From a virus (Duplodnaviria > Heunggongvirae > Uroviricota > Caudoviricetes), in IMG/VR virus record IMGVR_UViG_2923296884_000001: a stretch of DNA of 39,382 nt, one strand, 5' to 3'. This document shows positions 20,995-33,615 of this stretch, piece by piece. Below the pieces are notes generated by a model that was given only the letters and a program-made list of their open reading frames with translations, made no database searches and had not been told where the DNA came from. Position 1 is the stretch's first letter; every line of letters begins with the position of its first letter. The position numbers were made by a program, and so were the translations under genes.

Positions 20995-22047
20995 TTAGCT
21001 GTCGGCGAACTTCAGGCCAGTGATCATCGCGCACTTGCCATAGTCTTCAACGACATAAGCGTCATTGATGGACTGGTAGGTGGCGATGCGGTTGTATTCC
21101 GGCTCGTCTTTCATCAGGCGACGCATTGAACCTTTCTGCCAGTAAATCGACAGGTTGTTGAACGAGGTGATCAGCATCGTTGAATCCGGGAAGAACGGCG
21201 CAAGGAATACATCCAGTCCGCCAATGGCGCGCGATGACAGGATGAGCTGTCCGGCAAGTAATTCCGCATTGGGATTCTGGCCGCTGATGCTGTTCAGCAC
21301 GGGCAGACGCAGCGAGTTAAACAGGTTGCGCCCCATAATCACCACGAGGTCGTCAGCTTCCTTGTGCCATTCATCCAGCAGGGATGAGCGCGCATCCTGT
21401 ACCAGAGCATCGGCATTCGCATACTTACCCGCGTGCGCCACAGTGTTGTCCATGTTGCGGGAGGTCAGCGTCACGTCATTCATTACGCGCTCGCTGGCAT
21501 CGGTTCTGATGTGCTCCAGCCAGCCCACGTTTACGTCCTGAAGCAGCTTGTTGGTGTGAAAATCAGACTCGTAGGCGTGGGATGTGCCGTTAAAGCCAAT
21601 CATGATGCGATCAAGCGCTACCTGCCGGGCGATCTGTGTACTGATACGGGACTGAAAATCGCTGTGGGCCGCCCAGGTATCAAGCTGTGGGTACGAAATA
21701 AAGGTATCGTAGTTCACCTGTTCGCACTGGTACTGACGAGACTTCATATCGATCACGTTATTCGGGTTACGGCGTTTGATGCCGTCATAACTGCTATTCG
21801 TGCGCGCAATTGGCCCGGTGGTGTCCAGGAGGATTTTTTCGCCTTTCTGGTCGGTCACGCCGATCACGTTAATTCTTTTCGTAAATTCGGTACTTTCCTT
21901 TGAGGCGTTTTCAAAACGTTGCTGCACCGCGGGTTCCACGGTAAATCGCGATACCAGTGCGGAAACCGGGATATTGTTAAGCGACGCCTGCTGCGCCATA
22001 TAGCAACCCAGCTTGTTGCGGGTAATATCTGACATCACCAGATTCAT
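20995..22047 (-). CDS. N: major capsid protein N
   Basis: 350-aa ORF with P2 gpN similarity; AAGGAG SD before the ATG at 22047. Confidence 0.92.
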   Translation of the reverse strand: MNLVMSDITRNKLGCYMAQQASLNNIPVSALVSRFTVEPAVQQRFENASKESTEFTKRINVIGVTDQKGEKILLDTTGPIARTNSSYDGIKRRNPNNVIDMKSRQYQCEQVNYDTFISYPQLDTWAAHSDFQSRISTQIARQVALDRIMIGFNGTSHAYESDFHTNKLLQDVNVGWLEHIRTDASERVMNDVTLTSRNMDNTVAHAGKYANADALVQDARSSLLDEWHKEADDLVVIMGRNLFNSLRLPVLNSISGQNPNAELLAGQLILSSRAIGGLDVFLAPFFPDSTMLITSFNNLSIYWQKGSMRRLMKDEPEYNRIATYQSINDAYVVEDYGKCAMITGLKFADS

Positions 22048-22070: not shown

Positions 22071-22907
22071 TCAGAAGTCAGCCAGTTGATCGGAGGCTGC
22101 GCCCGTTGCGGTGAACCGGTTCTGCGGATCGCCGTCCTGCGTGCGCAGTTTTTCCTTCAGTGCTGTCAGCTCTGTGGTCAGTAAAGTGATTTTCTGGCTG
22201 TCCTGCTGATGGCGGGTTTCCAGCGCATTAAAACGGTCGATAATGTCGGCCTGTGACGTTGCGACGCCTTCCACCGCTTCCTGAATACGGGAGAAACTGG
22301 CGTCATCCGCTTTGCGGCCACGGCCAATAATCCCCATTACGCGGTTAAACCACTGGGTGCCTTCTTCCTGGCGTTGTTCTGCCATTTCGATGATTTCAGA
22401 CTCGATGGCTTCGGAGATAAGCGGTGCTTCACCCTGGACACTGTTGAACGTCATCACCGCCTGACGTTGCTGTGCCGTGAATTTCAGGCGTTCAGTGCCC
22501 AGGCTTGCCGGGGTGTCGGTCATCGCCAGCCCGACCAGATAGGCGCGCCCGTTAACGGAGAACTGCGGGTGCAATTCGATACTGGAATAGATTTTCTTGC
22601 CGTCCGCGACAAGCTGCTTCATGCGCTCGGTCGGTTCGATTTCTGCATACAGCGCAGTACGTCCGGCCAGCGGACCTTCCGTAATGTCTTCCGTACTCAG
22701 CGCGGTGACATCGCCCATTGCGGAAAATTCGCTTGACGGGCATGGCGAGAGATAGTGCTCAACGTTCACGCGGGCGGCGTAAACATCCGGGTTGAAGTTC
22801 TCGGCGGCTTCACGCAGATGCACCGGACTGATTTCGCGGCCATCAACAGTTGATCCGGAGACAGCCACGCGAAACTTTTTGCGGGATGTCTTTTTTTCAT
22901 TAGCCAT
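22071..22907 (-). CDS. O: capsid scaffolding protein O
   Basis: P2 gpO-like ORF; start refined to the ATG at 22907 (MANEKK..., SD GAGGGG). Confidence 0.88.
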   Translation of the reverse strand: MANEKKTSRKKFRVAVSGSTVDGREISPVHLREAAENFNPDVYAARVNVEHYLSPCPSSEFSAMGDVTALSTEDITEGPLAGRTALYAEIEPTERMKQLVADGKKIYSSIELHPQFSVNGRAYLVGLAMTDTPASLGTERLKFTAQQRQAVMTFNSVQGEAPLISEAIESEIIEMAEQRQEEGTQWFNRVMGIIGRGRKADDASFSRIQEAVEGVATSQADIIDRFNALETRHQQDSQKITLLTTELTALKEKLRTQDGDPQNRFTATGAASDQLADF

Positions 22908-23061
22908 AGTTTTTGCCCCTCTGACTGGTTCTTCAGTCATGATGGCAAAGCGTAACAGGCTGATACAAAGGGCTTTTGTTGTAAGAAAACGGCCAGAACA
23001 GGGGGTTAAGGAGAACGGTTTCGCGCGCGGGTAATCTTCCTGTAATTACTCAGGGGGAGCA
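22908..23061. promoter_or_regulatory. divergent late promoter region between O and P
   Basis: 154-bp gap between divergent O and P starts, as in P2; contains TTGTTGT-N-AGAACAGG (22975-23004), similar to the motif upstream of FI. Confidence 0.45.
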
Positions 23062-24813
23062 ATGATTCAGGACGCTTTTGTGCGCCAGCGTGCGCGGCAA
23101 CTTTACTGGCAGGGTTATCCGCCCGCAGAAATCTCACGTCTGATGGGAATAAACCCGAACACGATTTATGCGTGGAAAAAACGCGACCAGTGGGATGAAA
23201 CGCCACCCGTGCAGCGTGTCACGCAGTCCATCGATGCGCGCCTCATCCAGCTTACTGAAAAACAGAATAAAACAGGTGGTGACTTCAAGGAAATAGACCT
23301 GCTGACCCGGCAGCTTAAAAAACTGCATGATGGCCAGCCAGATGCGACGGCCACAGGAAAGAAAGGCCGGGCGAAAAAACTTAAAAATCATTTCACGCCG
23401 GAACAGATTGCTGCACTGCGGGAAAAAATCATCAGCAGGCTGGAGTGGCATCAGCGGGGCTGGTTTGACTCCCTGACTCTTTGCAGGGAAGCCGGGATAC
23501 GTAACAGGATGATCCTGAAATCCCGACAGATTGGGGCGACCTGGTATTTTGCACAGGAAGCACTGCTGATGGCGCTGCGTGACGATGTGGCGCAACCTTA
23601 CCAGCGTAACCAGATTTTTTTGTCTGCGTCGCGTCGTCAGGCGTTCCAGTTTAAAAGCATTATTCAGAAGGTCGCATCTGAAGTTGATGTGGAGCTGAAA
23701 GGGGGCGATAAAATCATCCTCTCCAACGGCGCAGAGCTGCATTTTCTTGGTACTTCTGCTGCGACGGCACAGTCCTACACGGGCAATTTTTATTTTGATG
23801 AATTTTTCTGGGTCAGTCGCTTTGCTGAACTGCGCAAGGTGGCTGGCGCTATGGCAACCCTCAGCGGACTGCGGCGCACCTACTTCTCCACGCCATCCAC
23901 CGAAACGCACGAGGCATACGCCTACTGGAACGGCGACCGCTGGAACGAGAAAAAGGCCTCGCATAAACGCCAGCGTTTTTCTGTGGACTGGAAAACGCTG
24001 CATAACGGGCTTATCTGCCCCGACCGGACGTGGCGGCAAATTGTCACGCTGGAAGATGTGGTTAATCACGGCTGGAAACACACCGATATTGATGAAATTC
24101 GTGATGAAAACACCGAAGACGAGTTCCTCAATCTCTATATGTGTGAGTTTGTCCGCGAAGGGGAATCGGCATTTAACCTGAATATCCTGATTGGCTGTGG
24201 TGTTGACGGATACGACGACTGGAAAGACTGGAAACCTTTTGCTCCCCGCCCGATGGGGAATCGTCCGGTATGGATTGGGTATGACGCAAACGGCAGCAGT
24301 GGAAACGGCGACAGCGGCGCTGTGTCCGTGGTGGTTCCTCCGGCTGTTCCTGGCGGCCGTTTTCGAACGGTGGAGACGCGACGCGTTCAGGGGCTGGAGT
24401 TTGAAGAACAGGCCAGAGTCATTGAAGAGTTCACGTGTCGCTACAACGTGGAACACATCGGCATTGATGTGACAGGCGGGAACGGGGAGGCTGTTTATCA
24501 GATAGTGAAACGGTTTTTCCCTGCTGCTATTCCGTACACCTTCACGCTGTCATCAAAACGGTCGCTGGTACTGAAAATGCTGCAAATAATGCGTGCCGGG
24601 CGGTGGGAATACGATCGCGCCGAACGCGAGCTGGTCGCGGCCTTTAACGCCGTGCGTAAGGTGAAAACACCGGGCGGCTTTATCACTTACGAAACGGACC
24701 GCGCGAGGGGGATCAGCCACGGCGACCTTGCGTGGGCAACCATGCTTGCTGTCATTAACGAACCAATTGGCGGCGAAGGAGAAAACGAGCGTTTCACGGT
24801 TATGGAGTTCTGA
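23062..24813 (+). CDS. P: terminase large (ATPase) subunit P
   Basis: 583-aa ORF with P2 gpP similarity. Confidence 0.95.
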   Translation: MIQDAFVRQRARQLYWQGYPPAEISRLMGINPNTIYAWKKRDQWDETPPVQRVTQSIDARLIQLTEKQNKTGGDFKEIDLLTRQLKKLHDGQPDATATGKKGRAKKLKNHFTPEQIAALREKIISRLEWHQRGWFDSLTLCREAGIRNRMILKSRQIGATWYFAQEALLMALRDDVAQPYQRNQIFLSASRRQAFQFKSIIQKVASEVDVELKGGDKIILSNGAELHFLGTSAATAQSYTGNFYFDEFFWVSRFAELRKVAGAMATLSGLRRTYFSTPSTETHEAYAYWNGDRWNEKKASHKRQRFSVDWKTLHNGLICPDRTWRQIVTLEDVVNHGWKHTDIDEIRDENTEDEFLNLYMCEFVREGESAFNLNILIGCGVDGYDDWKDWKPFAPRPMGNRPVWIGYDANGSSGNGDSGAVSVVVPPAVPGGRFRTVETRRVQGLEFEEQARVIEEFTCRYNVEHIGIDVTGGNGEAVYQIVKRFFPAAIPYTFTLSSKRSLVLKMLQIMRAGRWEYDRAERELVAAFNAVRKVKTPGGFITYETDRARGISHGDLAWATMLAVINEPIGGEGENERFTVMEF

Positions 24814-25859
24814 TGAGCAGAAAAAATAAAAAAGTGCGCATGAGTTCACGCATTGATCTCGCTGATGCGCTCAGGAAAGAATCATCGCTCAGTGCATTCA
24901 CATTTGATGGTCCTTATCGCCTGACCGGGCATGACCTGCTGGACAATATGTACTGTGCTGATAACGGGCGGTGGTATGAAACCCCGGTGGACTGGTACGG
25001 TCTGGCAAGAGCAGCCCGGCAAACGTCCTGGCATCAGTCTGCGCTTTACTTTAAGCGCAATGTATTACTCGGTTGCTACATCCCGCACCCGCTGCTTTCC
25101 CGGCAGGATTTCTCGGCGCTGGCGCTGGACTGGTTTGTGTTCGGTAACGCATTCCTTGAGCTTCGAAGCAATATGCTCGGCGAACCGCTTAAATTACGGC
25201 ACGCCCTGGCGAAATATATGCGACGCGGAAGCGATCTTGAATCATGGTGGTATGTGCAGGATGGCAAGGACGCGTTTCAGTTTCGTCCTGGCAAAGTGTG
25301 CCACCTGATGAATCCGGATATTAACCAGGAAATCTACGGCATGCCGGAATATCTTGGCGCATTACTCTCGGCCAGCCTTTCTCATTCGGCGGACATGTTC
25401 AGAAAACTGTACTACGACAACGGATCCCACGCCGGGTGCATCATCTACATCGGTGCAGCGCAGGTAAACCGCGAAAGCATGGACTCCCTGAAAGAAACGC
25501 TACAGGGGGCACGTGGTGGTGGTGCGTTTAAAAACGTGCTCATTCATGCGCCCAACGGGGGCAAAGAGGGGGTGCAAATTTTGCCGTTCCAGCAGATCAC
25601 CGCAAAAGATGAATTCATGAATGTTAAGGCGGCATCCCGTGATGATGTGCTGGCTGCGCACCGCGTTCCGCCGCAACTGATGGGGGCGATGCCGGGCGAA
25701 AAAAGTGCGTTTGGCGATGTGGAGAAGGCAGCGCGGGTTTACGCAATTAACGAGCTGATGCCCGTCATGGAGGCTATGAAGCACATCAATGACTGGCTTG
25801 GCGAAGAGGTGATCCGTTTTAACTCTTATGCTCTTCTTGATGAAAAAACAGCCCCGTGA
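24813..25859 (+). CDS. Q: portal protein Q
   Basis: 348-aa ORF with P2 gpQ similarity; start overlaps the P stop (TGATGA). Confidence 0.93.
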   Translation: MSRKNKKVRMSSRIDLADALRKESSLSAFTFDGPYRLTGHDLLDNMYCADNGRWYETPVDWYGLARAARQTSWHQSALYFKRNVLLGCYIPHPLLSRQDFSALALDWFVFGNAFLELRSNMLGEPLKLRHALAKYMRRGSDLESWWYVQDGKDAFQFRPGKVCHLMNPDINQEIYGMPEYLGALLSASLSHSADMFRKLYYDNGSHAGCIIYIGAAQVNRESMDSLKETLQGARGGGAFKNVLIHAPNGGKEGVQILPFQQITAKDEFMNVKAASRDDVLAAHRVPPQLMGAMPGEKSAFGDVEKAARVYAINELMPVMEAMKHINDWLGEEVIRFNSYALLDEKTAP

Positions 25860-25876
25860 TGGGGCTGTCCTTTTTA
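25848..25876. terminator. bidirectional rho-independent terminator between convergent Q and the 174-aa gene
   Basis: ACAGCCCC-gtgat-GGGGCTGT stem-loop with an A-run upstream and T-run downstream. Confidence 0.65.
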
Positions 25877-26398
25877 CCAGAGTTGAACCATTTTCTGGGT
25901 GCCGTCAGGCTTGAGATTATCAATTTCAGAGAGAACGTAATATTGAATGGCTTCACAAACGGTGGTGTAGGGTGAATTACCTTCTTTAAGTGGCACGATA
26001 TTATTATTAACGCGAACCTGTATTTCATCGTTATACATTGCGATCGAAACAGGCGTGTGCACGAACGCGACTTCGCCAGGTGTGTCGTCAACCACCGTTT
26101 CAATACTAAAAGTCAGTTTTCGCTCATCATTGCTGCCCCGTGCTTTGGGGGTAGCGGCAGGGATCTGGGATAAAGGCATTCTGCGAAATCCTTCGGCTGC
26201 TTCCAGTCCGCATGAAACGTAATGCTGGCGATTACCGTCGCTATCTGTCCAGGTCTGTGATGGCAGCTCCAGCGAGATTTCATAAGCATCAACAATGCCC
26301 TGGGCAAGGCGTACAAGCGGGGTCAGATCTTCATTGCGGCGAAAGCTCTCCTTTACCTGCTCCCGTTTTTCTCTTAACTGCTTGTAATTAATGACCAT
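25874..26398 (-). CDS. hypothetical protein (about 174 aa), orphan gene between Q and the early-operon terminator
   Basis: ORF 25874..26437 with start refined to the ATG about 26398 (MVINYKQLREK...) preceded by a GGAGG SD; lower GC than neighbours; no family recognised. Confidence 0.6.
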   Translation of the reverse strand: MVINYKQLREKREQVKESFRRNEDLTPLVRLAQGIVDAYEISLELPSQTWTDSDGNRQHYVSCGLEAAEGFRRMPLSQIPAATPKARGSNDERKLTFSIETVVDDTPGEVAFVHTPVSIAMYNDEIQVRVNNNIVPLKEGNSPYTTVCEAIQYYVLSEIDNLKPDGTQKMVQLW

Positions 26399-26495
26399 AA
26401 GACAGCCTCCATTGATTTCTTTGCTCGTATTTTGCACTTATGAAGTATGGTCGGCAAGGTGCCGTATCGCTGACGCGCTTCGCTTGTCTGCTGCT

Positions 26496-26524
26496 TCGCC
26501 GGGGCATAAAAAATTTATGCCCCG
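26496..26524. repeat. 29-bp perfect palindrome GCCGGGGCATAAA-aaa-TTTATGCCCCGGC
   Basis: Read directly from the sequence; lies in the ~500-bp noncoding stretch upstream of the 174-aa gene. Confidence 0.7.
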
Positions 26525-26930
26525 GCTCTCCAGCTCCTGTATCAATCAGATAATTTCACGACGCCTTCCAGTTTATCGCCACCATCGACGGTCAGACTCT
26601 TACGCAATTCCACCGCGTTGACTGCATGTTCTCGCTGCCTCAGTGCGATTTTGACGGCCTTACCTTTCACCCCATCAAATCAAAAGCCCTCACGCCTTTT
26701 TCATGCTCAGCGTGAGAAATATGGCCATTCTGTTGTGTCTCTGCGACATCGTTCAGGGAATGCTATTTACCCCCTGAAACGCGGGCTGTTCCCCCGTCAC
26801 CTGCGCGCAGAAAAAGCGCGTTTTTTTGTGCACGCACGGATCCTTGACGGATCCAGCCGCCATGCGGGCCGGAAGGGTAAAAAGTCGTTCAAAAAAATTG
26901 TGCAAATTTGTGCACTTTTGTGCAAACAAA

Positions 26931-26956
26931 AAGCGCCCCTGAGGCGCTTTAGTGTT
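26931..26956. terminator. terminator of the leftward early/accessory operon (bidirectional stem-loop)
   Basis: AAGCGCC-cctga-GGCGCTT flanked by A/T runs, about 30 bp after the last minus-strand gene; preceded by three TTGTGCA direct repeats (26899-26930). Confidence 0.6.
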
Positions 26957-26984
26957 TTATAGGTTGTGTATATTTGCTGGGTCC

Positions 26985-27248
26985 TTATCCTGCTGTGCTT
27001 TCAACTGATGAGGGGAACAAAATCTTTTCATCAAACCCTGCATTCATATCATGGACAGCAACACACCAATCCATTGACGAACGATTATCAAGAGCCTCCA
27101 TGATTTCATCCATGCGGCGTAGGTCATACAGGTAAATGCTTTTATCGCCAATGGTGTAAAAACCAATTTTTTTCGGTGATGGACAGCGATCAAGAACGTC
27201 CTGTAATTCGCTCAACCATGCTTGTTCTTTTTTTGTCAAAGTTGCCAT
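26985..27248 (-). CDS. hypothetical protein (87 aa)
   Basis: Start ATG at 27248 with strong SD GAAAGGAG; packed TGAtATG against the upstream gene. Confidence 0.6.
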   Translation of the reverse strand: MATLTKKEQAWLSELQDVLDRCPSPKKIGFYTIGDKSIYLYDLRRMDEIMEALDNRSSMDWCVAVHDMNAGFDEKILFPSSVESTAG

Positions 27249-27249
27249 A

Positions 27250-27690
27250 TCACTCTCCTTTCCCATGAAGCATAGCGGCGCGGCAGGCGTTCCATATTTC
27301 GGCAGCAATATAGCGCTCGCTATCGGTTAATTTGTACGTGGAAACATAGCCAGAGAGCATTTCTACGTTTTCCGGAGTTGCTTCTTCCGGCACTACCGGC
27401 GCTGGCAAGGCAGCGTGATAGTAGAGTGGCATAGTTTTGTACAGTGGTTCGCCAGGACTTCCGTCAGCCTGATTCCATTCTTCAACCCAGGCATCAACAA
27501 CCGCTTTGCTGGTTGATACATGTTCTTCTGAATCTACATTTTGTCCTGATATACAGAACATAACTGCCTCTGCTTCCAGCGATGCCAGAGCAATTTCATA
27601 AGCCCGACGCTCAATATTGTCTCGGACGTCCAGGCTGCCTATGCGCTCTTTGATTTCTTTAATCAGTTCTTTGTCGGTAAAAGTGGTCAT
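27250..27690 (-). CDS. hypothetical acidic protein (146 aa)
   Basis: Start ATG at 27690 (MTTFTDKEL...) with SD AAAGGAG. Confidence 0.6.
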   Translation of the reverse strand: MTTFTDKELIKEIKERIGSLDVRDNIERRAYEIALASLEAEAVMFCISGQNVDSEEHVSTSKAVVDAWVEEWNQADGSPGEPLYKTMPLYYHAALPAPVVPEEATPENVEMLSGYVSTYKLTDSERYIAAEIWNACRAAMLHGKGE

Positions 27691-27691
27691 A

Positions 27692-28006
27692 TCAATCTCC
27701 TTTGGTACCAATGTTTACAGCCTGGTAAGCCTCTTTGAGCACCCAGTCAACAGCGTCTTTCCATGCTCCGGTTTCGACTGGCGGATTCTCACGCTTTACC
27801 TGTTCATAGAAACGCACCGCTCTAACCAGTCCATCTGACGGTTTTGCCTGTAGTGCAGCCTGAGCTATGCGGTATGCCTGGAGCATACGGGCGTCGTTGA
27901 TATCCATTCCGAACGGAATTTCTGATGATTGTGACTCTGCATCTTCAAGCCTGGCAATTTCTTTACGTAAGAAGTATTTCAACTCTTGTTTCTGTTTTCT
28001 GTTCAT
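27692..28006 (-). CDS. hypothetical protein (104 aa)
   Basis: ATG at 28006 overlaps the upstream stop (ATGA). Confidence 0.6.
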
Positions 28007-28335
28007 GCGTTTTTTTCCTTTTTGTCTGTCACTTCTTTCCTGATAATTTCATTGCACAAATCCACGCACTCATTGCAGATGTAAACAGACGGTCCGGCAA
28101 TCACCTTTGTGACTTCGTACTGGGATTTATTGCAGAAGCTGCAATAAACCGTCTTCTCGCCTGAAGTCCATGTTTTGCTGGTTTCGCCAGACATCAGTTG
28201 TTTGAGGTCTTTTTCACGACGAAGAACTATCTGGCCACATTCAGCTATTTTTTGGATGTTGACATTTTCTTCTTTCGCCAGCGCTTCCATCCGCTCAATC
28301 AGTCGCTGCGCTTTTTCTCTGTCAATGTGTTGCAT
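28003..28335 (-). CDS. small protein with a C-terminal ClpX-type C4 zinc finger
   Basis: C-terminus [36 protein letters not shown] closely matches the ClpX N-terminal zinc-binding domain (CSFCGK...[15 protein letters not shown]); strong SD AAGGGGGA. Confidence 0.7.
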
Positions 28336-28398
28336 TGTGTCCCCCTTGTTTATGCTCCCGGGTTAAAGTCATCAGGGCGGATGCGCCCTGATGTTGTG

Positions 28399-28710
28399 TT
28401 ATTCGGGAAATAACGCCCGGATATTTCCGGCCATCTGACTGGTTATCTGTGCGGCTGATACTGGCTGTGACGCGGGGCGTTCTGTCCTGGTTTGTGTCAT
28501 TGATAACGCCTCATCATCAGCCCATGCAGCCAGTCGGTAAGCCTCTGCCGGATTCATTTTCAGTAGTGCCAGCCCGGCCAGAAAAGCCACGCGTTGACCA
28601 CTTTTGCGGGCTTCTGGTGTAAGGCTGTCCAGCCAGGCGCATGCTTCGCCTTCGTTCTTGACGGCGGCGGGCTTCAGATAGAAACTTATCCGTCTGGTTG
28701 GTGTCGTCAT
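28399..28710 (-). CDS. parR: ParR-like partition adaptor (103 aa)
   Basis: ATG at 28710 four nt after the parM stop, SD AAGGAG; N-terminus ISFYLKPAAVKN...VAFLAGLALL resembles plasmid R1 ParR (IAFKLNPDVN...AALTAGLALY). Confidence 0.7.
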   Translation of the reverse strand: MTTPTRRISFYLKPAAVKNEGEACAWLDSLTPEARKSGQRVAFLAGLALLKMNPAEAYRLAAWADDEALSMTQTRTERPASQPVSAAQITSQMAGNIRALFPE

Positions 28711-28714
28711 TGGT

Positions 28715-29674
28715 TTACTCCTTGTCCATTGCGTACAGCCCATTAACCAGAGCAAACTGTGGCACCCCGTCCGCGATGAAAGTCGCATTAACTCCGCAGG
28801 CTTCGCGGATAGCGGGTGCCACAATCTCTGCCCCGCCACCGACAACCATCACCCGCCCGTAACCCGAAAAACCCGCCAGCGCGCGGATCACGCGTTGTTT
28901 CAGTGTTTCTTCCTTTTCACGAATAACCGCCATCAGGCTGGCGTAATGCGCGTCATTGTGGATGTGCTGGCGCAGCCAGGCTTCATCATGGCGATGTTCG
29001 ATAATGGTATTGGCGATGTGGTGACTGGTACGCATACCGTTAGTGGCCATCACCGACAGTACGGCATCGGCCATCAGGGAAACGCCTACGTGTGGATCGC
29101 AAAACACCTGGCTGATACCTGCCAGTTGTCCCTGAACCTTTGCCACATCCAGCGTGGTTCCGCCTAAATCCACAATCAGCAGGGATTCAAACGGACTCAT
29201 GTCAGCCAGTGCCTTAAAGCCAGCCGGAATGGATTCAGGCATAACCCGCACGTTACGGATAGTGAATGCTTCGCCGTTCTGGTACTCCACCGGGCGCATA
29301 ACGTTCGCTTTTTTGCGGTTGATGTTGGCCATGTCCGGCTGTGCGTTTGTGTCGAAATACTCGCTCAGTGGCAGGGTGACAACCACATCCACCTCCTGTG
29401 GCGTGATGCCTGATTTGACCAGCGCGTGATGAATGGCGATTACATTCACATCGCTGTACTGGTATTGCGTGTCGGTCGTCTGGACAAAGCGATCGCTAAC
29501 CGGATCAAAACCATAGCGCACGCCATCAAGCATGTAGTTCGCGGGCTGCATGCCACCGAACGGCGCAGACCATTCCGACTTGAAGCTGTTCGGGCTGATG
29601 GCGTTGCGGCGTTCGCCATTCTCAGTCCATGCCAGCTTGATGTTGGTGGAGCCGTCGTCGATACAAATTTTCAT
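28715..29674 (-). CDS. parM: ParM/StbA actin-like segregation ATPase
   Basis: 319 aa; MKICIDDGSTNIKLAW... with full-length similarity to plasmid R1 ParM (phosphate-1 motif DDGSTNIKL, VMPESIPAG, LIVDLGGTTLD, VVGGGAE). Confidence 0.9.
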   Translation of the reverse strand: MKICIDDGSTNIKLAWTENGERRNAISPNSFKSEWSAPFGGMQPANYMLDGVRYGFDPVSDRFVQTTDTQYQYSDVNVIAIHHALVKSGITPQEVDVVVTLPLSEYFDTNAQPDMANINRKKANVMRPVEYQNGEAFTIRNVRVMPESIPAGFKALADMSPFESLLIVDLGGTTLDVAKVQGQLAGISQVFCDPHVGVSLMADAVLSVMATNGMRTSHHIANTIIEHRHDEAWLRQHIHNDAHYASLMAVIREKEETLKQRVIRALAGFSGYGRVMVVGGGAEIVAPAIREACGVNATFIADGVPQFALVNGLYAMDKE

Positions 29675-29705: not shown

Positions 29706-29816
29706 TTTACGGGATTCTGAAATCCCGTTTTTGCCTGTTTTGTGTGCGCTTCATATATCGCGGCGCGTTTTTTGCTCATTTACGGGATTTGTGAATCCCG
29801 TTTCTGTCTGTTTTTT
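29706..29816. repeat. two ~39-bp direct repeats, each with an ACGGGATT-nnnn-AATCCCGT palindrome; parC-like centromere or replication origin candidate
   Basis: Copies at 29706-29744 (in the A-parM gap) and 29779-29816 (within the last codons of A), 73 bp apart. Confidence 0.7.
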
Positions 29817-32573
29817 GTTTCCACTGGTCAGGCCACCCCGCAGCAGGTCTGCTTTGCGGCGGGCACGTTCAGTGGTTTCACTGATTCTCTGTGCGTGCTC
29901 TGCGTCGCGGATGGCGCGCAGCATGTCAGAAAGCACGGTAACGGGGGGGGTCATGGTGTTCTGGTCCTGCTGAAGTGTGGATGCCAGACGTGCGGCGGCT
30001 TCGGGGTCTGATGCCCCCAGCTGTTCCAGATAGCTGGCGACCGGGTTATGGCGGATCTCCGTGCTGCTTACGCCGTGATTACGGCTCAGGCGCTGCCAGA
30101 GCTGCGTGATTCGGCTGTCCGGGCGGGTATCCGGTTTGCGTACAATTTCAAATCCCTGCGGTGCAATGATGCTGCCGTCAACGTACAGGCTGCCGCCCCG
30201 TAACAGGTGCTGCATCTGCTGTTCACCGATATGCAGGCCGAGAGATTCGGCAGATTCCCGCCATTCTTTAGCGAGTAATTCGTGGTTATCAGGCAAAGGC
30301 CGCTGCTGTTTGCGGCTCTGTGTCCAGCTCTGCATTTCATCACTGCTGTTTTTTGCCTGTTTGTCACGCAGCGAACGCATCAGCGCCCGGCGTTCGTGCC
30401 GTTTCAGTGAGCGCATCCATTCGTTCACGTCAACGCCGTCAGGAAGCTGCGGCCACGGTGCTGGCCGTTCTTCCGGCTGTTCTGTCCCGTTGTTGTCCGT
30501 TTCCTGTACACGGGGACAGTTATTGCCACGAGTCCAAGGGGCGGCAGGGCCGCCCTGAAGGTCAAAACCATTTTCGCGGGCGCTGTCTTCCGCTTCCGGT
30601 TTACGTCTTACCAGCTTCCAGTTATCCGGATGCGTGCACACACGGGAGGATTCCCCGATGAGTGGTGACCAGATCCCGTAAATCTGTACGCTCTGTTCGC
30701 CGTAATCGTTCAGCTCATCTGCGAGGTCGTAGGCGGTGCGAATCAGGTAGTCTTTGCGTGGAACAAGTACGCCGCCCTGTTTTTCAATGTAGGTGGCAAA
30801 ACACCCGGCATCGGCGGCAGCGAGTACCGCATCCATTGCGTCATCTTTCAGTCGTTGCGGGCCTTCCGGGTTGCGTGCCATCTGGCTGGCAAGGCGGCGC
30901 AGTTCACGCCACACCTGACGGGAGGGGATGCCAAAGAACTGGAACTGGCGGACCCGATGAAGGCGCGCCCAGCCGATGGCGCGCTCCACACTCTCGGCCA
31001 TTGATTTTCCGGTTTCGTGGTCAACGCGTGGCTTGCCCGTTTTCGGGTCGATGCCATCCACGGCGCGGCTGTCCAGGTTCTTTCCGATGTAGGTCGCGAT
31101 ATAGCTGGTTGGTGTGCCTTTTGAGCCGTCGACATACTCCGCCTTAAAGCGCGGAGTAATATCATTGCCCAGCTCGTGGCGGTCTTCCTGAATGGCAATA
31201 TCGCGGGTATGGGACACAATGGTGTCGATTTCTTCCGGATGAGCAAAGACCATCATATGCCAGTGCACGGTGCCGTCATGGTGAGGCTCCACCGTGCGGA
31301 TGCCATACCAGCGAAGACCGTCGCGGTTCAGTTTTTTGCGGACCGCCGCAAAAAACGTGTTAACCAGGTAATAGCTGGAGTCGCGCATGGTGGCCCCGTT
31401 CCATTTGGGATTCGGATGACCGTTCTCTGTTGTGGCGTGGTATTTTGACGGGCAGGTGACAGTCAGAAACACCGCTTTGTCGCCACGGGCTTCGGCCAGA
31501 AGTTCCAGCCCCTTCATGGTGGCCATCATTTCTGCCTTACGGTGAACCGGGTTACTTACTCCCGCGTAATACACTGTCTCGAGATCAATCGTGAACCCGT
31601 CTTCGTTTTCCAGCATGAAACTTTTCAGGAAATCGCGTGTTTTCTCGCGCTGTGCGCGAAACTCGCTTAACGCGTCCTGGCTCAGATAGGGTGATGTTTT
31701 TCTGGAAACCAGACAGGCGGCGCGGAGTTGTTCTTCTCTCCACTCGCAACGTAACAGCCACAGTTTGCGTTTCCACCATTCCGCACAGGTCAGGCGAAGG
31801 ACTGCGCCCGGCAGCAGCTCCGTGTCCGGTTCGTTCCTCCGGTTTTTATCTGTTGTCAGTGCGTCATAATGTGGAGGCATGATGTGCAGGTGTAACGCCA
31901 TGCGGGCCAGCATCTGATACGCCTTCAGCGTTACATCCATGGTCAGCTCGCCATCTCTGGCACCAAAGCCATCACAGAGTTTTTCGAAGGTGCTGCTGAA
32001 CATCGCCGCCGTCATGGTGGCCAGCGTCTGTATCTGGTGTTTGTTGAGCTGCGGCAGGTAAAGCAAATCGTCCAGGCGTTCGCGTCCGGCAAGGGAGCGA
32101 TAACCCGGTGTCAGCCAGTGTCCGTCAGTGCGATCCAGACGTTCGAATATTTTGCGCAGGGTTCCGCGTGCATAGCGTTCCGCCTGCCAGCTCTTTTTGC
32201 CTTTCCGGCGATCGGCTTCCTGTTTTTTGCGCAGGAAGGAGAGGTGGCGAATAAGCGGATCGCGCAGATAGGACGGCAGCAGGCGCAGCGAGGCCATGGC
32301 TTCATCCACCGCGCCACGTGCCTGTTTTCTGGCTTCTCTGGCCAGTGTGATGGTTTTGTCCTGTTTTTCCTGTGCGTCCAGGCTTTTATTAATCAGGTTG
32401 CCCAGCGGCGTGGCGGAGAACGCCGCATCAGCCATTTCCTGGCGGCGCTCGTTCTCTGCCCGGTAGGCATCCAGCCAGGAGGAAAGCTCGGATTCAGGAG
32501 CGGGGATTCCCGTTCCTTCACGACCCACTGCGTGGCGCGGTTGTTGCCAGTCCCTGATGTACTCTGCCGTCAT
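29751..32573 (-). CDS. A: replication initiation protein A (rolling-circle endonuclease)
   Basis: 940-aa ORF with P2 gpA-type features; longer than P2 gpA (761 aa). Confidence 0.92.
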   Translation of the reverse strand: MTAEYIRDWQQPRHAVGREGTGIPAPESELSSWLDAYRAENERRQEMADAAFSATPLGNLINKSLDAQEKQDKTITLAREARKQARGAVDEAMASLRLLPSYLRDPLIRHLSFLRKKQEADRRKGKKSWQAERYARGTLRKIFERLDRTDGHWLTPGYRSLAGRERLDDLLYLPQLNKHQIQTLATMTAAMFSSTFEKLCDGFGARDGELTMDVTLKAYQMLARMALHLHIMPPHYDALTTDKNRRNEPDTELLPGAVLRLTCAEWWKRKLWLLRCEWREEQLRAACLVSRKTSPYLSQDALSEFRAQREKTRDFLKSFMLENEDGFTIDLETVYYAGVSNPVHRKAEMMATMKGLELLAEARGDKAVFLTVTCPSKYHATTENGHPNPKWNGATMRDSSYYLVNTFFAAVRKKLNRDGLRWYGIRTVEPHHDGTVHWHMMVFAHPEEIDTIVSHTRDIAIQEDRHELGNDITPRFKAEYVDGSKGTPTSYIATYIGKNLDSRAVDGIDPKTGKPRVDHETGKSMAESVERAIGWARLHRVRQFQFFGIPSRQVWRELRRLASQMARNPEGPQRLKDDAMDAVLAAADAGCFATYIEKQGGVLVPRKDYLIRTAYDLADELNDYGEQSVQIYGIWSPLIGESSRVCTHPDNWKLVRRKPEAEDSARENGFDLQGGPAAPWTRGNNCPRVQETDNNGTEQPEERPAPWPQLPDGVDVNEWMRSLKRHERRALMRSLRDKQAKNSSDEMQSWTQSRKQQRPLPDNHELLAKEWRESAESLGLHIGEQQMQHLLRGGSLYVDGSIIAPQGFEIVRKPDTRPDSRITQLWQRLSRNHGVSSTEIRHNPVASYLEQLGASDPEAAARLASTLQQDQNTMTPPVTVLSDMLRAIRDAEHAQRISETTERARRKADLLRGGLTSGNKKQTETGFTNPVNEQKTRRDI

Positions 32574-33248: not shown

Positions 33249-33426
33249 GATGTGGCCTCTCTGTTAGTTAGTTTTGAAAACTCACCATCCAGAGGTTCCA
33301 AGCTCGGGGTGGTGAGACGTACAGGGTTGGAACTACCGGCTAACAGAGGACCCGGCCCAGCTGATGCTGGCCCTGTACGCCCCACCATAATTCTGACGCG
33401 AAAAAGACGTGGCGATACGGCACGCA

Positions 33427-33448
33427 CAAAAAAACCGCTGGCGCGGTT
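33427..33448 (-). terminator. rho-independent terminator candidate (minus strand) between the SPFH module and the replication module
   Basis: Minus-strand AACCGC-gcca-GCGGTT followed by TTTTTTTG. Confidence 0.45.
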
Positions 33449-33615
33449 GTGCGCTCTGTTAGTCTGCGGGGTTCCAATCCCGGCACCCGTTTTATGAGGT
33501 GCAGCGGAAATGTAACCTGACTGATTGCGGCATGGCAAGCGGTTTTTTTGTGAGAACGGCATACTAAAAAATCCTGATACTGCTCCGGCCAGCGGTTTTC
33601 ACTGGCCGGGTTTAA

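Follow-up and report, generated by a model that had tools for sequence, protein, structure and literature searches.

A PHROG 5091 gene beside the portal gene of P88-like prophages is best described as a moron in a known hotspot

Introduction

What is the role of a single small gene that sits next to the portal gene of some P2-like prophages, and do the conspicuous motifs in the noncoding DNA beyond it serve that gene? The question arises from IMG/VR record IMGVR_UViG_2923296884_000001, a stretch of 39,382 nucleotides (nt) that we analyzed as a whole and will call the window. Its map of open reading frames (ORFs) is that of a P2-type prophage, reversed relative to P2, and megablast places the phage among the P88-like phages (genus Xuanwuvirus, family Peduoviridae). 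Between the portal gene Q and the terminator of the early operon lies a gene for a protein of 174 amino acids (aa). The best-supported description of this gene is a classical moron in a known hotspot, and its product is a protein with a predicted, previously unseen fold. The motifs are explained as cos architecture, and the gene is an ordinary hotspot candidate.

The moron concept reportedly goes back to Hendrix and Juhala, and the pick-up site between cosL and Q is said to have been described by Dodd & Egan (1996) and Nakayama (1999). That cosL-Q is a place where P2-like phages acquire foreign genes is now recognized (PMC5694545). The gpA-gpQ interval is also a validated defense hotspot: three of eight cloned P2 loci gave protection (PMC9122126), and 49-81% of P2-like prophages carry defense genes (PMC13586616).

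Results and Discussion

The gene lies in an accessory block with sharp borders

The gene and its immediate surroundings are as follows:
24813-25859, plus strand: portal gene Q, 348 aa (from the ORF list), 99% identical to Q of P88 except in the tail
25842-26469: accessory block (moron) of ~628 bp, absent from P88, 520873, and Shae_phiSM
25848-25868: bidirectional intrinsic terminator, common to Q and the 174-aa gene, which converge on it from the plus and minus strands, respectively; each strand has a T-run
25874-26398, minus strand: 174-aa gene, PHROG 5091, RefSeq WP_000236495.1
26410-26406, minus strand: Shine-Dalgarno sequence GGAGG, read from the sequence, 7 nt upstream of the ATG
26457-26429, minus strand: putative private sigma-70 promoter, with TTGCCG at 26457-26452, a 17-nt spacer, and CAAAAT at 26434-26429

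The 174-aa ORF that an initial annotation of the window had picked out from the sequence holds up, with its ATG at 26398. (A longer reading of 187 aa from a GTG was rejected, as the homologs all start with MVINY.) We located the borders of the block from blastn break points and from alignments to P88, 520873, and Shae_phiSM. Where the window has 628 bp, these three phages have 15 bp, which encode the last five residues of Q. In the window, those five codons (EKTAP) and the stop codon come from the block instead, so that the C terminus of Q reads ...LLDEKTAP, versus ...LLDTQPTS in P88. The new Q tail and stop are followed by the bidirectional terminator, the minus-strand ORF, its Shine-Dalgarno sequence, and ~70 bp of upstream DNA, and the right junction falls just before the stop codon of the backbone Q (TGA, 26471-26473). 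The window's portal tail (25842-25859) resembles the tail of a Salmonella homolog (LLEEK; L007 6565-6600), and portal tail and accessory gene may have been inherited together as one block.

Two further properties are those of a moron. First, the block is present or absent with sharp break points, at ~25842 and 26469. Second, the gene has its own terminator, on the minus strand at 25848-25868; the structure folds at -16.9 and -21.5 kcal/mol (z of -4.2 and -5.1).

The initial annotation had assigned ~500 bp of noncoding DNA to the gene as its promoter region. This is not the case: 26470-26938 is kept at 92-96% identity in P88, 520873, and Shae_phiSM, all of which lack the gene. The upstream DNA that is private to the gene is 26399-26469 only (~70 bp).

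Within these 70 bp is the putative sigma-70 promoter. It matches 8 of 12 consensus positions and hence was not reported by a simple scan. As a phylogenetic footprint, we compared the window with the upstream regions of homologs from Salmonella (L024, L007, and L009) and Trabulsiella (L005). All five sequences retain the -10 AAAAT and the GGAG, while the -35 TTG and the 17-nt spacing are each kept in four of the five; the surrounding sequence has diverged. Because the -10, the -35, and their spacing are kept in homologs while the flanks diverge, we consider these elements to be the footprint of a putative private promoter, although this is no proof of activity. We also considered a P2 late promoter (Ogr-type, TGT-N12-ACA) and rejected it: the sole nearby match, at 26731-26748, is in backbone DNA ~330 nt upstream, and the motif occurs at chance-level frequency. 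Searches with Rfam found no RNA families in the interval.

Classical lambdoid or P2-like morons are promoter-gene-terminator units that vary among close relatives, deviate slightly in their content of G and C (GC), and occupy recognized sites (PMC5694545). We see no difference in kind between these and the 174-aa gene, which belongs to the category. The gene had been called low-GC; the direction is right (47.6%, versus 52.9% for the window), but the label is a weak description.

The neighboring motifs are explained by a proposed cos site

Beyond the block, the interval contains:
26498-26526: perfect 13-3-13 palindrome, a backbone element
26801-26783, minus strand: proposed 19-nt cohesive end, GGTGACGGGGGAACAGCCC, assigned from position, flanking architecture, and conservation
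26803-26821, plus strand: GC hairpin and then a T7 run, adjoining cos; counterpart of the P2 hairpin before cosR
26826-26924, minus strand: proposed cos right arm, with TGCAC boxes and the GGATCCGT direct repeat (26836-26854)
26950-26930, minus strand: intrinsic terminator of the early (gpA) operon, from a terminator scan and folding
29751-32573, minus strand: gpA, 940 aa, the start of the early operon, which reaches down to 26985

The motifs that drew attention to this interval are real. Besides the 29-bp perfect palindrome, there is a duplicated ACGGATCC (at 26836 and 26847; the whole window has four copies, versus one expected) and there are three TTGTGCA repeats spaced exactly 10 bp apart (at 26898, 26908, and 26918), to which we add a fourth copy at 26826. 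The early-operon terminator does bound the interval. However, the palindrome, both of these ACGGATCC copies, and all of the TTGTGCA copies are inside the backbone stretch 26470-26938. They are backbone or cos elements that are present with or without the gene, rather than its regulatory region as had been proposed.

The cos site had been described as not recognizable. We propose a diverged 19-mer at 26801-26783, which matches the cos of P2 at 13 of 19 positions. (The cos sites of P2 and 186 were reportedly described by Ziermann & Calendar in 1990.) An ungapped scan with the 19-mer of P2 or 186 alone does not discriminate, as other sites in the window match at 14-15 of 19 positions, so the call rests on position, flanking architecture, and conservation.

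We place cos here because four TGCAY boxes are found at P2-like distances. On the minus strand, TGCAC boxes start at 26832, 26904, 26914, and 26924, which is -31, -103, -113, and -123 from the cohesive end. The spacing in Salmonella and Trabulsiella is identical (-123, -113, -103, -31), and in P2, whose cos is annotated from experiment, TGCAT boxes are at -123, -111, -101, and -29 (L011 4380-4594). Despite 6 differences between the 19-mers, the spacing is thus nearly identical in P2 and in the P88-like, Salmonella, and Trabulsiella phages, and it appears to reflect a right-arm architecture that is conserved across these phages. Because the cos evidence agrees, we interpret the TTGTGCA repeats as the right-arm boxes of a P2-family cos site, and these repeats are probably terminase-recognition elements.

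Conservation points to the same site. The identical 19-mer is found in Salmonella P2-like prophages (L007-L009), Trabulsiella and Morganella have close variants of it, and its location is the interval between gpA and Q every time. The window resembles the Salmonella phages over 26780-26927 only; the similarity ends at the 19-mer, and the right arm is ~80% conserved. A distant P2-like prophage of E. coli keeps 26780-26833 at ~170 nt after the portal stop, which is the geometry of P2.

Overall, the proposed site shares with the cos of P2 and 186 a 19-nt end with a G-rich core, an adjoining GC hairpin, four TGCAY boxes at about -30, -100, -110, and -123, and a location near the end of the portal gene. 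It differs from P2 in the 19-mer itself, and cleavage here is predicted. The distance from cos to Q also differs: it is 167 bp in P2, versus ~310 bp in the P88 backbone and ~925 bp in the window, with the insert.

The palindrome folds strongly (-29 to -32 kcal/mol, z about -7) and has no U-tract. In P88-like phages that lack the insert, it lies 25 nt after the stop codon of Q; P88, 520873, and Shae_phiSM keep it with one stem mismatch. It may be an end-of-Q hairpin, which would be an unusual kind of structure for the end of an operon, or it may be bound by a protein on the left arm of cos.

With gpA at 29751-32573, Q at 24813-25859, and the proposed cos at 26783-26801, the gene is located in the gpA-gpQ interval next to cos, on the Q side, between cosL and Q. 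It had been thought to occupy the place of tin and old in P2, but these genes are on the other (gpA) side of cos. Like old, tin, and other cargo of the P2 hotspot (Rousset et al. 2022), the gene adjoins cos, varies among phages, and forms a transcription unit of its own; unlike old and tin, it is on the Q side and is transcribed toward Q.

A conserved protein family with a predicted fold that lacks known relatives

The 174-aa protein matches PHROG 5091 with E = 1.4e-67 over residues 1-168, which covers the whole 164-position profile. Scans against Pfam, NCBIfam, and PADLOC (PADLOC-DB v2) gave no match. The initial annotation called the gene an orphan of unrecognized family. "Orphan" is overstated, since a profile search of 1.84 billion cluster representatives (clustered at 50% identity) found 87 members at E ≤ 0.001, but it is correct that the family has no assigned function. 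Most of the 87 are full-length proteins of ~155-175 aa without fused domains, and a few are fragments or matches to repeat proteins. All 49 relatives that we aligned match PHROG 5091 and nothing else; Pfam and PADLOC assigned these 49 to no family and gave just two single PADLOC hits, at chance level. Close homologs (46-96% identity) are from E. coli, Salmonella, and Trabulsiella only.

Rousset et al. 2022 list WP_000236495.1 167 times in their Table S5 (PMC9122126), and each time it is an unnamed "hypothetical" that ends gene arrangements of the P2 hotspot. It is absent from the table of tested systems in that study (table S2), and no activity is reported there. Our literature search found no mention of the accession WP_000236495.1 or of PHROG 5091.

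This is a real protein gene under purifying selection: the ratio of nonsynonymous to synonymous substitution rates (dN/dS) is 0.058 between the window and a 97%-identical allele from Salmonella and 0.185 between two Salmonella alleles. With an isoelectric point (pI) of 5.0 (family median, 5.1), the protein is mildly acidic, and it is soluble.

AlphaFold2, given the 49-sequence alignment, returned a confident model (predicted local distance difference test, pLDDT, of 90.3; predicted template modeling score, pTM, of 0.81). The model is a compact alpha/beta structure, with an N-terminal helical hairpin, an antiparallel sheet, and a C-terminal helix, and this predicted fold is without a known relative. 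A phmmer search of the Protein Data Bank (PDB) gave hits to designed helical repeat proteins (E = 2.7e-7), but the family profile did not reproduce these, and we treated them as compositional artefacts. The only invariant residues in the 49-sequence alignment are S42 and L43, and no strictly conserved residues of a catalytic type are visible across it. Because of this pattern of conservation, the protein would be a binding protein, not an enzyme.

Distribution of the gene and its relatives

As the initial annotation suspected, the gpA-gpQ hotspot holds variable cargo here: the gene is present in four of ~16 related phage records. Carriers include PhiR44_2, which is 99.8% identical to positions 25700-27100 of the window (megablast), and vB_EcoM-569R5. 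The gene is absent from P88, 520873, Shae_phiSM, P2, and 186. Among 5426 complete E. coli genomes, the insert is found in 395, at 399 places; in all rows listed, its neighbor is a portal gene. Complete E. coli genomes have 1313 places with the P88-type cos region, which means that the gene is carried by roughly 30% of these elements. Members of the family are hardly ever found on plasmids and are rare among phages that have been isolated and sequenced; scanning viral contigs with single proteins yielded one additional locus.

In P2-like prophages of Salmonella and Morganella, the homolog is in the same place and is convergent with the portal gene. The Trabulsiella homolog is on the other side of cos, toward gpA, with HicAB and Phd/Fic modules around it. 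Across E. coli, Salmonella, Morganella, and Trabulsiella, the homologs in the gpA-gpQ interval adjoin toxin-antitoxin modules and other cargo. More distant members are found in five lambdoid phages or contigs (from Yersinia, Klebsiella aerogenes, E. coli phage CharmingMan, and two metagenomic contigs), in the slot that has the antiterminator or nin-type early genes on one side and the lysis cassette on the other. They are directly upstream of the holin gene in four of the five; other genes intervene in CharmingMan. All five lambdoid loci that we scanned have an intrinsic terminator after the gene, as does a Salmonella prophage (L007). In Morganella (L012), a minus-strand (portal-sense) terminator was the only one detected between the gene and the portal gene.

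This distribution bears on whether the gene is a lytic accessory of the phage itself, acting for instance in late expression, lysis timing, head completion, or packaging. Such a gene would be dispensable yet beneficial and unrelated to conflict between phages. Its stereotyped position, beside the portal gene in three P2-like lineages and upstream of the holin gene in four lambdoid loci, is consistent with this, as is its divergence in step with the portal gene (see below). But ~70% of the P88-type cos loci of E. coli do without it, as do the five gene-less phages named above; the function of the neighbor differs with the type of phage (portal versus holin); the Trabulsiella copy is on the other side of cos among toxin-antitoxin modules; and the gene is transcribed against the P-Q operon. 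We consider this explanation unlikely.

The hosts bear on another explanation, that the gene is a lysogenic-conversion factor that acts on the physiology or virulence of the host and not on phages. The gene has the architecture of a moron and is frequent in lineages of extraintestinal pathogenic E. coli (ExPEC) such as sequence type 131 (ST131), and the hotspot is also known to hold cytolethal distending toxin and partition systems (PMC9122126). Yet the 174-aa protein has no signal peptide, transmembrane segment, or toxin-like domain, and the family, which extends to Klebsiella, Yersinia, Morganella, and metagenomic phages, shows no association with a pathotype. Of the explanations that we consider, this one seems the least probable.

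Two relatives of the locus differ in their neighboring cargo. In E. coli M1/5 (L023 3632-5635), the 174-aa gene is identical, while the small ORFs that the window has on the gpA side of cos are replaced by a gene for an S8-family peptidase, which implies that the two sides of cos vary independently. In a Yersinia lambdoid prophage (L013 4150-6532), the slot between antiterminator and holin contains an antisense pair of genes beside the PHROG 5091 member: one encodes a 411-aa protein with no recorded Pfam hit and the other encodes a NA37 (YejK-like nucleoid-associated) protein. This pair may be another uncharacterized cargo system.

Possible phage exclusion or counter-defense

We tentatively suggest that the gene encodes a prophage-expressed, non-enzymatic binding protein that excludes competing phages. 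We propose this because of the record of the hotspot, the autonomous unit with its host-type putative promoter, and the predicted non-enzymatic fold. The unit between cosL and Q is self-contained, with its own weak putative sigma-70 promoter, ribosome-binding site, gene, and terminator, and transcription from the prophage would be constitutive. The product would act stoichiometrically, by binding either a protein of the competing phage or a host factor that this phage needs. A superinfecting phage would then be excluded without any enzymatic activity, as with P2 Tin or the Tai proteins, although the 174-aa protein is unrelated to either.

The Tai (tail assembly inhibition) proteins are a plausible functional analogue. 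They too are single small moron proteins of prophages, without enzymatic domains, and are found in hotspots of several types of phage. TaiEcA acts by binding, and the lysogen expresses it constitutively (PMC11364771). The Tai genes differ in location: most of them lie upstream of the packaging module, and that of phi80 is antisense to the late operon.

Several observations weigh against exclusion. No homology ties the protein to phage exclusion and no PADLOC model matched, so the role is inferred from location. In particular, hhalign gave a probability of just 0.33% for homology to P2 Tin and 0.05% for homology to TaiEcA of phi80, and we rejected both. The putative promoter matches only 8/12 consensus positions, and expression in the lysogen is predicted. 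Also, the portal protein and the ORF diverge roughly in parallel (75% and 63% identity to Salmonella, respectively; 47% and ~23% to Morganella). This suggests long residence in phage backbones with repeated loss, unlike the rapid swapping that is typical of defense cargo. Finally, the lambdoid homologs are inside the late operon in the sense orientation, and one of them (L016, checked by eye) is downstream of a tR'-like hairpin. That position would fit late lytic expression as well as it fits expression from the prophage.

Some of these observations would be expected under counter-defense instead. The product might bind and inhibit an immune protein of the host, as Acr, Ard, or Gad-type inhibitors do, and so help its carrier to infect, or to be induced in, defended hosts. 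The family is restricted to phages, has stayed with phage backbones over long divergence, and is in the sense orientation in the lambdoid late operons, and the gene, with its host-type putative promoter, occupies the extreme left end of the packaged genome. On the other hand, a position in the late operon is unusual for an early-acting inhibitor, there is no adjacent aca-like regulator, and known anti-defense genes are rare in P2-like prophages (28/1511; PMC13586616). We view counter-defense as somewhat doubtful, but nearly as plausible as phage exclusion.

Whether the target belongs to a competing phage, as we tentatively prefer, or to host immunity, PHROG 5091 could be a new family of stand-alone, phage-encoded inhibitors, with an unseen fold and an undescribed mechanism of binding, that takes part in conflict between phages or between phages and host immunity; we offer this as a possibility. 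The timing of expression after injection could be affected by the location of the gene, which is at the very end of the packaged genome and has a host-type putative promoter, although the idea of a first-injected gene is speculative.

Other features of the prophage

On the far side of Q, the ORF map shows the expected genes:
20995-22047, minus strand: capsid gene N
22071-22940, minus strand: scaffold gene O
23062-24813, plus strand: large terminase gene P

The early operon has cargo of its own. Directly after gpA, it encodes a ParM/StbA actin-like segregation ATPase (28715-29674, minus strand), with a Plasmid_stab_B partner beside it (28399-28710, minus strand) and a 110-aa protein with a ClpX C4 zinc finger (28003-28335, minus strand). 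The whole segment (28003-29674) is putative plasmid-partition cargo, which about a quarter of P2-like phages carry according to Rousset et al. Three small ORFs on the minus strand (26985-28006; PHROG 1714, 5117, and 26213) form a second variable segment where the operon ends. At its edge, 26982-27100 is 94-97% identical to DNA from unrelated lambdoid and sipho-type phages, which indicates that this piece moves between types of phage.

Rfam identified two RNAs above their gathering scores, next to each other on the minus strand: a C4 antisense RNA (33305-33392, 78.5 bits) and the Hfq-binding small RNA isrK (33428-33502, 72.4 bits). As judged from these matches, the pair suggests that this prophage has a P1/P7-type antisense module for the control of immunity or an anti-repressor.

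Implications

The assignment of cos in the P88-like (Xuanwuvirus) phages is independent of the role of the gene. The conserved spacing of the TGCAY boxes should be useful for delimiting prophage genomes and for predicting the compatibility of helper and satellite phages in packaging. As for the gene, it is small and needs no partner, and there are natural phages with it (PhiR44_2 and vB_EcoM-569R5) and without it (P88), which makes its role easily testable. It is carried by ~7% of complete E. coli genomes, including ST131. If an anti-phage or anti-defense activity proves to be true, then a common single-gene system with a new fold would be added to the repertoire of E. coli prophages.

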